From the IMG/VR virus record IMGVR_UViG_3300025889_000071: 64,000 nucleotides of DNA. One strand, given 5' to 3'. The number at the start of each line of letters is the position of its first letter. Positions within the stretch are counted from its first letter, which is position 1. Below, piece after piece: positions 1,053 to 56,258 of the stretch. Position numbers and translations under genes: made by a program. The notes under the pieces are model-generated. The model made no database searches. It was not told the DNA's origin and saw nothing but the letters and a program-made list of their open reading frames with translations. The DNA is from a virus. Lineage: Duplodnaviria > Caudoviricetes.

Positions 1053-1505
1053 ATGCCATATAAAAACAAAGAAGATGCTGCGGCTCAAAAGAGACGATGG
1101 AGATTGGTTAATCCTGAAAAAGTAGCTGAAACTCAACGAAGATATAGGGAAAACAACCCATACAAATATGCTGATAAAAGAACAAAAGAACAGCATAAAA
1201 TAAAAAATAATCTTCAAAGAGAATCTAGAAGAAAGTTTTTATATGAGCAAAAAGGAGAAAAATGTTGTCAGTGTGGTTCAACTGAAAATCTTGAGTTTGA
1301 CCATATCAATCCCTCTTTAAAGACATCTAGACAGTCATTTCTTTCAATGGGGCTTGAAACTATTAAAGAACAACTTGATAATATTCAAGTTCTTTGTCAT
1401 GATTGTCACAAGAGTAGAAGTACATTTCAAAAAAATGCTGCTTGGAAACTCTTCACTTCTCTTCCCCTTGAAGAACAGGAAAGACTTATATCGGAGCAGA
1501 TATAG
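1053..1505 (+). CDS. Free-standing HNH homing endonuclease
   Basis: CxxC (CCQCG), LEFDHINP, NIQVLCHDCHK zinc/HNH motif; basic N-terminal DNA-binding region. Confidence 0.85.
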   Translation: MPYKNKEDAAAQKRRWRLVNPEKVAETQRRYRENNPYKYADKRTKEQHKIKNNLQRESRRKFLYEQKGEKCCQCGSTENLEFDHINPSLKTSRQSFLSMGLETIKEQLDNIQVLCHDCHKSRSTFQKNAAWKLFTSLPLEEQERLISEQI

Positions 1506-23831: not shown

Positions 23832-24911
23832 ATGTCTTCTACAACACTTTCAAAACAACAATCGAATACTTGGGACCAGTTCACTGAGTGGGTCACTTCC
23901 ACCAACAATCGTCTTTATGTTGGTTGGTTCGGAACTCTTATGATTCCAACCCTGCTTGCTGCTACACTCTGCTTCATCGTTGCCTTCATCGCTGCTCCTC
24001 CTGTGGACATCGATGGCATCCGTGAACCAGTCGCTGGTTCTCTCCTTTATGGAAACAACATCATCTCTGGTGCTGTTGTTCCTTCTTCTAACGCAATTGG
24101 ACTCCACTTCTATCCCATCTGGGAAGCTGCATCACTTGATGAATGGCTTTACAACGGTGGTCCTTATCAATTGGTCGTCTTCCACTTCCTGATTGGCATC
24201 TTCTGCTACATGGGTCGTGAGTGGGAACTTTCTTATCGTCTGGGTATGCGTCCCTGGATCTGCGTTGCATATTCCGCACCTGTTGCTGCTGCATCTGCTG
24301 TATTCCTGGTCTATCCTTTCGGTCAAGGTTCTTTCTCTGATGGTATGCCCCTTGGTATTAGTGGCACGTTCAACTTCATGCTTGTCTTCCAAGCAGAGCA
24401 CAACATCCTGATGCACCCCTTCCACATGCTTGGTGTGGCTGGTGTCTTCGGTGGTTCACTGTTCTCCGCAATGCACGGTTCTCTGGTTACTTCTTCACTG
24501 GTTCGTGAAACCACAGAAAACGAGTCCCAGAACTATGGTTACAAGTTCGGTCAAGAAGAAGAGACCTACAACATTGTTGCTGCTCATGGATACTTTGGTC
24601 GTCTAATCTTCCAATATGCATCCTTCAACAACTCCCGTTCACTTCACTTTTTCCTTGCAGCATGGCCTGTCGTAGGAATCTGGTTCACTGCACTTGGTGT
24701 TAGCACCATGGCATTCAATCTCAACGGTTTCAACTTCAACCAGTCCATCATCGACGGTCAAGGTCGTGTGCTCAACACCTGGGCAGATGTGCTGAACCGT
24801 GCCAACCTCGGGATGGAAGTGATGCACGAGAGGAACGCACACAATTTCCCTCTGGATCTTGCTGCTGCTGAGTCCACTCCTGTTGCACTTACTGCTCCAA
24901 CCATCGGTTGA
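23832..24911 (+). CDS. psbA: Photosystem II D1 protein (intron-less)
   Basis: [51 protein letters not shown]; uninterrupted 359 aa. Confidence 0.99.
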
Positions 24912-26178: not shown

Positions 26179-27240
26179 TTGGCTTCATCTACTCTATCAA
26201 TTCCACAACAAAAAGGAGGTTGGTTCGATGTCCTCGATGATTGGCTTAAGCGTGATCGGTTTGTTTTTGTCGGTTGGTCTGGCATTCTCCTTTTCCCTAC
26301 AGCTTATCTCGCTCTTGGCGGTTGGCTTACAGGAACCACCTTTGCTACCAGTTGGTACACCCATGGCTTGGCGAGTTCATACCTTGAGGGTGCTAACTTT
26401 CTCACTGCTGCTGTTTCTACTCCTGCTGATGCTCTCGGACATAGCCTCCTTCTTCTTTGGGGTCCAGAAGCTCAGGGAGATTTCGTCCGCTGGGTCCAAC
26501 TTGGGGGACTCTGGCCTTTTGTGGCGCTCCACGGAGCTTTCGCTCTAATTGGTTTCATGCTTCGACAGTTTGAAATTGCACGTTTAGTGGGGATTAGACC
26601 GTACAATGCAATTGCTTTTTCGGGTCCTATTGCCGTATTCGTTAGCGTTTTTCTCATGTACCCACTTGGACAGTCCAGTTGGTTCTTTGCACCGTCCTTT
26701 GGCGTTGCGGCAATCTTCAGATTCTTACTTTTTCTACAAGGATTTCATAACTGGACACTCAACCCCTTCCATATGATGGGAGTTGCTGGTATACTGGGAG
26801 GAGCACTCTTATGTGCTATTCATGGTGCTACTGTAGAAAACACACTTTATGAAGATGGCGAACAATCAAATACTTTCAAGGCATTTGAGCCGACTCAAGA
26901 AGAAGAGACTTATTCAATGGTTACCGCTAATCGTTTTTGGTCGCAGATTTTCGGTATTGCGTTTAGCAATAAGCGTTGGTTGCATTTTTTCATGCTGTTT
27001 GTTCCTGTTATGGGTCTCTGGACATCTTCAATCGGGATCATCGGTCTTGCACTCAACCTTCGTGCATACGATTTTGTATCCCAAGAATTGAGAGCAGCAG
27101 AGGATCCAGAATTCGAAACATTTTACACAAAAAATATACTTTTGAATGAGGGGTTAAGGGCTTGGATGGCTCCAGTAGACCAGCCGCACGAGCAGTTTGT
27201 ATTTCCAGAGGAAGTGCTTCCCAGGGGAAATGCACTGTGA
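26179..27240 (+). CDS. psbD: Photosystem II D2 protein (TTG start)
   Basis: [58 protein letters not shown]. Confidence 0.99.
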
Positions 27241-55406: not shown

Positions 55407-55478
55407 GGGAGTGTCGCATATTGGTTAATGCCCATGCCTTATAAGCGTGTGAACCGAGTTCAATTCTCGGCATTCCCA
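55407..55478 (+). tRNA. trnI: tRNA-Ile(UAU)
   Basis: Acceptor GGGAGTG/CATTCCC; anticodon stem CATGC/GCGTG, loop CTTATAA; T-arm CCGAG-TTCAATT-CTCGG; no CCA. Confidence 0.9.
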
Positions 55479-55481
55479 CTT

Positions 55482-55554
55482 GCTCCTTTAGCTCTCTGGT
55501 GAAAGCTCTCTGCTCATAACAGAAGAAAGGTCAGTTCGATCCTGACAAGGAGCA
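55482..55554 (+). tRNA. trnM: tRNA-Met(CAU), elongator or Ile2-type
   Basis: Acceptor GCTCCTT/AAGGAGC; loop CTCATAA; T-arm GTCAG-TTCGATC-CTGAC. Confidence 0.9.
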
Positions 55555-55557
55555 CTC

Positions 55558-55629
55558 GGGTGATTGGCGCAGAGGTAGCGCAGTAGATTTACATTCTATT
55601 GGTCACTGGTTCGAATCCAGTATCACCCA
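55558..55629 (+). tRNA. trnV: tRNA-Val(UAC)
   Basis: Acceptor GGGTGAT/ATCACCC; stem GTAGA/TCTAT, loop TTTACAT; T-arm CTGG-TTCGAAT-CCAG. Confidence 0.9.
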
Positions 55630-55633
55630 CCTT

Positions 55634-55916
55634 GCGAGTATGGTGGAATCGGTAGACACACCAGACTTATGAAAATTGAGCCTCATTTGAGAAATCTTAT
55701 GAGTGTAACTCCTCAAATTCGGGGAAACCTGTAAAATGGCAATCCCGAGCCAAGCATCGCAAGATGAAGGTGTAGAGACTAGACGGGGAGCACCTAAACC
55801 GAAAGGTATGGTGAAGGGATAGTCCAGACCACAAACCGTAAGGGCAAGGAAACTTGTAGTGGTAAGAAAATCTGTTGACCATTGCGGTCGTGGGAGTTCA
55901 AGTCTCCCTACTCGCA
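55634..55916 (+). tRNA. trnL: tRNA-Leu(UAA), split by group I intron (exons 55634-55668, 55867-55916)
   Basis: Joined exons give an 85-nt type II tRNA with anticodon loop CTT|AAAA, variable arm GACC..GGTC, T-loop GTTCAAGT. Confidence 0.92.
55669..55866 (+). mobile_element. Group I self-splicing intron (trnL-type, 198 nt, no ORF)
   Basis: Inserted U^AA; P1 CTT/GAG with U.G; P AAATTCGGGGAA, Q AATCCCGAGC, R GTGTAGAGACTAGACG, S GGATAGTCCA; GNRA loops in P6, P8, P9; ends in G. Confidence 0.93.
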
Positions 55917-55946
55917 TTAAAATAAATAAGACAAAACGGTAAGTAT

Positions 55947-56258
55947 ATGTCTTATCAATACAAAATCACCAGTTCATATTGTTGGTATAATAATGGCAGT
56001 ATGATTGTGAAAATGTATTTCATAAATGGCCTTCCATTTACTTTTGATGAACTTCCAGATGGACATTTACGCGATAAAGAATTAATTAAAGAAGCAAATA
56101 AATCAATATCTTATGAACCAGATGAAATGTATCGATATTCATTTTATCTGATTGATGAAGAAATGCATCCGATGCTTTTTCCTGTTGATTTGGAAAATCC
56201 GGAAGATATGCCAGACCAAGAAATAGAACTTTGTGATGAGCAAGATTTTATGCGATAA
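55947..56258 (+). CDS. Conserved hypothetical protein
   Basis: YCWYNNGSMIVKMYFINGLPFTFDELP...YLIDEE.HP. Confidence 0.75.
   Translation: MSYQYKITSSYCWYNNGSMIVKMYFINGLPFTFDELPDGHLRDKELIKEANKSISYEPDEMYRYSFYLIDEEMHPMLFPVDLENPEDMPDQEIELCDEQDFMR

Follow-up and report, generated by a model that had tools for sequence, protein, structure and literature searches.

How did a group I intron come to lie in the tRNA-Leu(UAA) gene of a cyanophage, and does it still behave as a ribozyme? The question arises from the window analyzed here, the whole 64,000-nt (64-kb) stretch of viral DNA, in which such a gene is split within its anticodon. Despite the many tRNA genes of phages, a 2014 review placed all phage group I introns seen so far in protein-coding genes (PMC3984707), and an earlier description of this DNA from its letters alone (hereafter the sequence-only reading) had given protein genes as their usual place. 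Devoto et al. (2019) described introns in phage tRNAs as previously unreported (PMC6784885). Among open-access papers, our full-text search found none published later that deals with group I introns in the tRNA genes of phages. The distribution of the trnL intron is patchy and has long been debated, and the intron has no known means of moving.

Anatomy and genome context of the split tRNA-Leu gene

The tRNA-Leu(UAA) gene occupies positions 55634–55916 (+) of the window and is interrupted between U34 and A35 by a group I intron (Table 1). The splice sites were set by the group I rule that a U precedes the 5' splice site and a G ends the intron, with U55668 as the −1 U and G55866, the last intron base, as omega-G. 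The 5' exon contains the acceptor strand, the D arm, the 5' anticodon stem and C32, U33 and U34, and ends in GACUU. The 3' exon starts with AAAAUC and contains A35 and A36, the 3' anticodon stem, a long variable arm, the T arm and the acceptor strand up to the discriminator A55916; CCA is not encoded. Joined at U34^A35, the exons give an 85-nt class II tRNA that ARAGORN calls tRNA-Leu(taa).

Aligned to the annotated tRNA-Leu-TAA of Synechococcus phage S-CAM4, which lacks an intron, the joined exons show no gap and 93% exon identity, and uninterrupted tRNA-Leu-TAA genes ~91–93% identical to the exons are present in Synechococcus phages S-CAM4, ACG-2014j, S-TIM5, and Sf-FS3. These orthologues span the junction CUU^AAAA and form a natural empty site. 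Because this site aligns gap-free, the coordinates, intron length and insertion site proposed by the sequence-only reading, namely a 198-nt ORF-less intron at U^AA, are correct. Insertion between anticodon nucleotides 34 and 35 of tRNA-Leu(UAA) characterizes the 'Leu.3Ug' class, named by Williams (2020, bioRxiv 10.1101/2020.01.27.920355), and is the classical insertion point of the cyanobacterial and plastid trnL(UAA) intron, as had been supposed.

Standard tRNA finders miss split tRNA-Leu genes of this kind. ARAGORN with introns disallowed does not report the gene at 55634; with introns allowed, it calls a tRNA-Tyr(aua) at 55633–55917, whose splice site is 2 nt off, and we preferred the U-1/omega-G rule and the empty-site alignment. 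No + strand ORF lies inside the intron. Two antisense ORFs cover it, at 55603–55917 (104 aa) and 55697–55882 (61 aa); both are mechanical, and the 104-aa frame, which has no Pfam or family match, was dismissed as an artefact. Separately, the intronless tRNA-Leu lies under a 'hypothetical protein' CDS, without a tRNA feature, in KJ019069, NC_026926 (ACG-2014j), KF156339, and NC_019444 (S-MbCM25/S-MbCM6).

The window comes from a T4-like cyanomyovirus with psbA (23832–24911), preceded by a PhotoRC-II RNA motif, and psbD (26179–27240). Tail-fibre genes flank the split tRNA-Leu, and the neighbouring ORFs are conserved phage ORFs; the closest cultured relatives are Synechococcus myoviruses, with ~60% protein identity for one flanking ORF. 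Since the spacers between the tRNA genes are 2 nt, the Ile-Met-Val cluster is probably co-transcribed with the split tRNA-Leu. A promoter and terminator scan gave counts not above those of shuffled sequence. The UAU anticodon of the tRNA-Ile that opens the Ile-Met-Val-Leu cluster is genomically encoded, and the S-CAM4 counterpart of the adjacent CAU-anticodon tRNA is annotated as a pseudo-tRNA. The phage psbA product (D1) is 94% identical to that of marine Synechococcus (WH7803) and 91% to that of a lake Cyanobium, and the psbD fragments are 95–97% identical in all compared, so that these genes do not tell a marine host from the freshwater-type host hinted at by the sequence-only reading. As a lead only, 18 of the 47 intron-bearing contigs described below have sample numbers in the block of IMG sample 3300042335, which is tied to a Lake Mendota series.

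Table 1. Position and supporting detail of the exons, intron elements and neighbouring genes in the window.
Feature	Position	Strand	Detail
tRNA-Ile(UAU)	55407–55479	+	ARAGORN and Rfam
tRNA-Met(CAU)	55482–55555	+	ARAGORN and Rfam
tRNA-Val(UAC)	55558–55631	+	ARAGORN and Rfam
5' exon of tRNA-Leu(UAA)	55634–55668	+	35 nt; alignment to intronless S-CAM4 tRNA-Leu-TAA, ARAGORN call on the spliced product
Group I intron, IC3-like, 'Leu.3Ug' site	55669–55866	+	198 nt; RF00028, covariation, MFE fold
P1	55663–55683	+	Exon 55663–55668 with internal guide 55678–55683; U55668-G55678 wobble marks the splice site
P2 hairpin	55684–55701	+	55684–55690 / 55695–55701; L2 GAAA 55691–55694; 7/7 pairs changed on both sides
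P3 5' strand	55709–55714	+	Partner 55785–55790; 6/6 pairs covary, 100% of cells paired
P4 and P5	55719–55748	+	P4 55719–55724 / 55743–55748; P5 55727–55729 / 55738–55740; L5 A-rich
P6 and P6a	55749–55771	+	P6 55749–55751 / 55769–55771; P6a 55755–55758 / 55763–55766; GCAA loop
P7 5' strand	55775–55781	+	G55775, bulged A55776, 55777–55781; partner 55820–55825; pseudoknot with P3
P3 3' strand	55785–55790	+	Covariation alignment
P8	55791–55813	+	GAAA loop 55801–55804; pairs covary
P7 3' strand	55820–55825	+	Covariation alignment
P9, P9a, P9b	55829–55862	+	P9 55829–55832 / 55859–55862; P9a GUAA loop 55838–55841; P9b 55845–55848 / 55853–55856, GAAA 55849–55852
3' exon of tRNA-Leu(UAA)	55867–55916	+	50 nt; S-CAM4 alignment, ARAGORN on joined exons
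Conserved 103-aa ORF, phrog_4134	55947–56258	+	Directly 3' of tRNA-Leu

Ribozyme fold and covariation

The Rfam group I model RF00028 matches the window at 55659–55848 with 63.3 bits (E 1e-13, model positions 1–253), above the gathering score of 50. For the covariation analysis, 36 distinct phage introns were aligned, and P1–P9 were written out from the window sequence with the P7 pseudoknot included. In this structure, 92.9% of the cells form standard pairs, compared with only 25–41% in the control with partners slid by 1–3 columns. Changes on both sides occur in 34 of 58 pairs, and none of 500 shuffles reached any observed pairing measure. Moreover, U-1 (U55668), the wobble G (G55678) and omega-G (G55866) are invariant in all 36 homologues, and the joining segments J3/4, J6/7, and J8/7 are largely so. 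The MFE fold of the intron alone recovers P2, P4–P5, P6a, P8, and P9 (z −2.4).

The U-G, U-A, and C-G pairs of P1 are the same in 36/36 sequences, and the outer P1 pair changes from A-U to G-C in step with the exon. The candidate P10 consists of 2 bp, in which U55676–U55677 are able to pair with A55867–A55868. P4–P5 are paired in 91.7% of cells, with compensatory changes in 3 pairs. Both P7 and P9 are paired in 100% of cells; one P7 pair covaries from A-U to U-A in 3 sequences, and all 4 pairs of P9b covary. As expected for this fold, P7 would be the guanosine-binding helix. The tetraloops are GAAA in L2, L8, and L9b, GCAA in L6a, and GUAA in L9a. Additionally, P8 has an internal loop with CCUAAA (55793–55798) opposite UAUGG (55807–55811), similar to the 11-nt GAAA-tetraloop receptor. 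In the Azoarcus intron, the P8 receptor docks L2; by analogy, the receptor-like motif of the window intron would be its L2 docking site.

An RF00028 score above the gathering score, the U-G wobble with omega-G, and a covarying P3–P8 core with the P3/P7 pseudoknot identify the element as a group I intron. The IC3 architecture, with no P5abc extension, a GAAA L2, a receptor-like P8, and a short P9 with a tetraloop, is read from the sequence and alignment, and its contacts are assigned by analogy. Collectively, the complete P1–P9 pairings of the sequence-only reading, together with P7, the tetraloops and the terminal G, are all readable in the sequence, and covariation backs the pairings.

The same alignment bears on whether the element has decayed, with splicing lost and the tRNA-Leu reduced to a pseudogene that the phage still carries. 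An A-C mismatch in P1, a C-U mismatch at anticodon-stem pair 27–43, and the failure of standard tRNA finders to detect the gene would be in keeping with decay. However, both mismatches recur in relatives, and the one at 27–43 is also present in the intronless S-CAM4 allele. Compensatory changes maintain the core helices across 27 variants of the same type and 12 more distant ones, the catalytic landmarks (U-1, the wobble G, omega-G and P7) are invariant with the J regions largely so, and the exons are intact and fold as a normal class II tRNA. We therefore regard decay as very unlikely. Because the 27 variants exist in 44 loci with exons intact in at least five acceptor-stem backgrounds, we argue for selection on splicing, and the window intron must still splice for tRNA-Leu(UAA) to function.

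Based on the behaviour of its intron family, splicing of the window intron likely proceeds as follows. The Ile-Met-Val-Leu cluster would be transcribed as one precursor, in which the intron folds into P1–P9. A free guanosine held in P7 would attack after U55668, in the U-G wobble of P1. Omega-G55866 would then occupy the G site, and the released 5' exon would attack behind it. CUU would thereby be joined to AAAA, yielding the 85-nt tRNA-Leu(UAA), with trimming and CCA addition left to host enzymes.

Distribution and size of the intron among phages

To define the relatives of the intron, we scanned IMG/VR with two patterns. The conserved P6-J6/7 core was found in at least 120 loci; among the 120 matches listed, 34 are intron-split tRNA genes, and 19 of those 34 are called tRNA-Leu(UAA), their introns being ~180–240 nt long as ARAGORN approximately places them. 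The 22-nt exon/intron junction of the window was found in 47 contigs, which hold 27 distinct intron variants of 198–200 nt in 44 loci, plus a 260-nt form (L132, L138, L143, L152, L162, and L166). This longer form has a 62-nt expansion in P6, along with which a C-G pair of P6 has become G-C. A sister intron type with the guide GAGUGC occupies at least 120 further viral contigs, several of them of 137–490 kb, and the 735-kb 'uncultured phage' LR756501 has an intron at the same tRNA-Leu site. The window's intron was not found in any cultured phage of a 50,697-record collection, and an intronless allele at the same syntenic position is present in at least 120 IMG/VR contigs. Collectively, the survey indicates that introns at the classical tRNA-Leu(UAA) site are widespread in the tRNA genes of phages.

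The sequence-only reading had placed a 198-nt intron near the smallest known. However, smaller introns of 189–197 nt occur in phage relatives among the matches listed, so that 198 nt is not exceptional. Introns of 189–198 nt would be useful as minimal ribozyme models, since they are shorter than the Azoarcus intron of 205 nt (PMC13168695). Rfam alone under-counts these introns, because at the gathering threshold it misses the homologous copies in LR756501 and in Pelagibacter phage HTVC120P (MH598807). In the latter phage, the annotation divides the capsid gene into two CDS, gp29 and gp30, with ~190 nt between them, and this gap (L002:1464–1654) matches the intron core with 73% identity over 123 nt; judged by this match, the major capsid gene looks as if it contains an unannotated group I intron.

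Two further sets of split genes were observed in IMG/VR. In L038, L043, L093, L120, L092, and L051, the same intron type lies at CUU^AAAA in tRNA bodies of class I, ~73 nt long, with a short variable arm and a UAA (Leu) anticodon. In L005, L016, L018, L058, L086, and L104, IC3-like introns split other phage tRNA genes, for which ARAGORN, with approximate splice sites, calls Arg(UCU), Arg(CCU), Pro(UGG), Thr(UGU), Lys(CUU), and Asn(GUU).

The tRNA-Leu genes with the window-type intron have at least five different acceptor-stem backgrounds, and L156 carries a 98–100% identical intron copy in unrelated flanks; together, these observations fit lateral spread. L157 is 98–100% identical to the window from 55599 to ~56350 and then only 65–82% identical inside the tail-fibre gene, which marks a sharp mosaic border. 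The mosaics of L156 and L157 are suggestive of exchange, but we did not count the mosaic as homing evidence because its border falls in a recombination-prone tail-fibre gene. Exon linkage was also considered through the D-stem pair U11-A24, which is present in 42/42 intron-bearing alleles; the pair is uninformative, as 48/117 intronless alleles also have it (both counts among the matches listed).

A probable phage lineage outside the sampled cyanobacterial trnL introns

We then compared the window intron with the introns of phages and cyanobacteria. It is 89–99% identical to other cyanophage-type copies, 66–76% identical to other phage tRNA-Leu introns, including that of LR756501, and 61–66% identical to 22 cyanobacterial trnL(UAA) introns of 212–304 nt, which were taken from a 151-genome sample of Cyanobacteriota. 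In a maximum-likelihood tree of ~200 columns with these 22 introns and an unresolved backbone, the cyanobacterial introns form one clade (96/95) with all phage rows outside, the cyanophage type falls in a separate clade (89/83), and the other phage tRNA introns form an unresolved comb. The window intron is thus not nested among the cyanobacterial introns sampled, and the tree is compatible with a deeper sister relationship to them. In the Synechococcus WH7803 family, to which the likely hosts belong, none of 151 sampled genomes has a tRNA intron, in line with the statement in the sequence-only reading that marine picocyanobacteria lack the trnL intron. All 151 have an uninterrupted match across the insertion site, of which the best six were confirmed as uninterrupted tRNA-Leu(UAA), and RF00028 matched only one of the 151, outside any tRNA. 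That match (L368 in genome G077, 94.7 bits) lies apparently inside a protein-coding frame. Elsewhere among the sampled cyanobacteria, five carry a ~302-nt group I intron in tRNA-Asn(GUU) (L388, L394, L397, L399, and L400), and L381 has one of ~518 nt.

These comparisons weigh on a recent capture, in which the intron or an intron-bearing trnL would have been taken directly from a cyanobacterial host, with the phage as vector. The phage and cyanobacterial introns share the insertion site and overall architecture, as well as the internal guide GAGCC(U), which is common to the window, cyanobacterial and plastid introns, whereas the other phage introns have GAGUGC. However, the guide follows the exon anticodon stem through the A-U/G-C pair, so the common guide may be convergent. 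In addition, the exons match the intronless cyanophage tRNA-Leu at 93% rather than cyanobacterial genes, none of the 151 sampled WH7803-family genomes shows a tRNA intron, and identity to the 22 cyanobacterial introns is low. Because the cyanobacterial introns form a clade without phage rows, no recent capture from any sampled cyanobacterium is indicated, and we consider this origin highly improbable. By its sequence relationships, the intron is a member of a phage-borne lineage, separate from recent cyanobacterial capture. Of the two roles that the sequence-only reading had offered to phages, the reservoir gains from the 47 contigs with the same junction and the at least 120 of the sister type, and nothing in the data supports that of a vector to cyanobacteria, whose sampled introns form a separate clade and are only 61–66% identical to that of the window.

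An HNH endonuclease gene adjoins the intron in relatives

To reveal genes associated with the intron, we compared, among the matches listed, 44 intron-bearing with 126 intronless loci for the ORFs that lie up to ~3 kb from the tRNA. In intron-bearing relatives, an ORF of 153–158 aa on the same strand starts ~46 nt past the tRNA 3' end; examples are L127:3690–4166 (−) and L135:1185–1649 (+). Its product has an HNH domain (PF13392/PF01844) with the motif ELDHIDGN...CPNCH and belongs to phrog_10822 (E 6e-53); a PDB sequence search with the protein gave no match. By tblastn, this tRNA-linked HNH gene, a variant or a remnant lies downstream in 12/36 assessable intron-bearing loci and in 0/102 intronless loci among the matches listed (Fisher p = 2e-8). 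The 12 include L154, with a 203-aa version 1.2 kb downstream, and L147, with only a 21-aa remnant. In the close relative L127, the gene is a ~570 bp insertion between tRNA-Leu and the 103-aa ORF (phrog_4134). Similarly, the same HNH family lies at most 1.2 kb from 16/120 sister-type split tRNAs among the matches listed, compared with one HNH match in 538 kb of distant sequence of those loci. From these loci, linkage of an HNH endonuclease gene to an intron-bearing phage tRNA-Leu appears to be new. Its occurrence only near intron-bearing relatives suggests collaborative homing like that of S-PM2 psbA and F-CphI.

The window itself differs. No member of the tRNA-linked HNH family is present within its 64 kb, and a free-standing endonuclease gene beside the intron-bearing gene is therefore a feature of the relatives (12/36) and not of the window; homing cannot be argued from the window locus alone because the family is absent there. 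The proposal that the intron could shield the gene from nucleases gains indirect support from relatives, in which the HNH gene often adjoins intron-bearing loci and never the intronless ones listed; the window has no such neighbour. A 150-aa ORF with an HNH domain (PF01844, 23.5 bits) does lie at window 1053–1505 (+), 54 kb from tRNA-Leu; it has only the catalytic motif in common with the tRNA-linked family (27% over 63 aa) and, on this comparison, is probably a separate free-standing homing endonuclease.

The ORFs over-represented near intron-bearing tRNA-Leu genes among the matches listed also include two further kinds, noted at L130:10027–10674 (−) and L165:6524–7453 (+). A Mom-family protein (PF25680) lies near 11 intron-bearing loci and 7 without the intron, and a D12 adenine methyltransferase (PF02086) near 7 and 2, respectively.

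The HNH gene is absent from 24/36 assessable intron-bearing loci, and there, as in the window, the intron is intact. This state, together with persistence in at least five tRNA backbones, could be taken to mean that the intron is adaptive without a homing enzyme, either because splicing controls how much tRNA-Leu(UAA) is supplied in response to GTP, Mg2+ or timing, or because the interrupted DNA escapes some other nuclease of the host or a rival. However, at least 120 related contigs do well without an intron at the same syntenic site, nothing sensor-like is seen in the sequence, and an ordinary homing cycle would be expected to leave introns behind once the endonuclease gene is lost. An adaptive role is thus unlikely in our view. 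Since the window shows the state in which the intron is kept and the endonuclease gene is absent, its intron is probably a neutral passenger.

Proposed life cycle of the intron

Collectively, we consider it probable, with good confidence, that the element is a genuine IC3 trnL(UAA) intron of a phage lineage, which undergoes collaborative homing in relatives and of which the window holds a copy without the enzyme gene. Collaborative homing is the most likely life cycle of the intron in these relatives, as judged from the linked genes. The HNH enzyme would cut the intronless tRNA-Leu genes of co-infecting phages, and repair would copy the intron together with the HNH gene into the cut genomes. 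The intron would split the target site of the enzyme, and the genome that carries it would be protected. Both the HNH target and homing are inferred, and the enzyme could cut elsewhere. Most simply, the window copy would be a retained passenger of this cycle, whose enzyme gene was lost or never received. The link between this phage lineage and one particular HNH endonuclease offers the trnL intron a candidate mechanism of mobility that is open to direct test.

A wider reading is that compact tRNA(UAA) introns make up a large mobile pool in phages, spread by dedicated free-standing HNH enzymes, and that this pool is the missing mobile form of the trnL intron. We put it forward as a doubtful but consequential idea. 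If it were true, occasional phage-to-host transfer could explain the patchy distribution of the intron in cyanobacteria and other bacteria, and the pool would contain the smallest natural self-splicing group I ribozymes, at 189–198 nt.

Comparison with known systems

The cyanobacterial and plastid trnL(UAA) intron (IC3) is the closest counterpart. It lies at the same U34^A35 site, is likewise ORF-less, and has the U-G wobble, omega-G, P1–P9 layout and GAAA L2 of the window intron, as well as the same P1 geometry, with an A-C mismatch beside the GAG-CUU pairs. In contrast, the 22 sampled cyanobacterial introns are longer (212–304 nt versus 198 nt), only 61–66% identical, and placed in a separate clade. 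Moreover, phage relatives of the window intron adjoin a free-standing HNH gene, and our searches found no such link for the cyanobacterial intron.

The Azoarcus intron resembles the window intron in its GAAA tetraloops and in the 11-nt-type receptor in P8. This intron, in the tRNA-Ile of Azoarcus sp. BH72 (205 nt, IC3; PMC13168695), is likewise compact, located in the anticodon loop and free of large peripheral domains. However, it is bacterial and lies in another tRNA at another loop position, and its self-splicing has been shown experimentally, whereas the window intron is known from sequence alone.

Lak megaphages (Devoto et al. 2019, PMC6784885) likewise have introns in phage tRNA genes, with presence/absence variation among related phages. 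Those introns were termed enigmatic, with no intron class assigned (PMC6784885), whereas the window element is a full ribozyme with an Rfam match.

The closest model for mobility is the psbA intron of S-PM2. As summarized in PMC6083498, citing Zeng, Bonocora and Shub (2009), this intron is ORF-less, and the neighbouring F-CphI cuts intronless psbA while the intron protects its own genome, a process named 'collaborative homing'. On that summary, the two systems are alike in that each is an ORF-less intron in a conserved gene of a cyanomyovirus, and the relatives of the window have the adjacent endonuclease gene only with the intron. They differ in the host gene (psbA versus a tRNA gene) and the enzyme (Endo VII-like F-CphI versus a putative HNH enzyme), and the window carries the intron without an enzyme gene.
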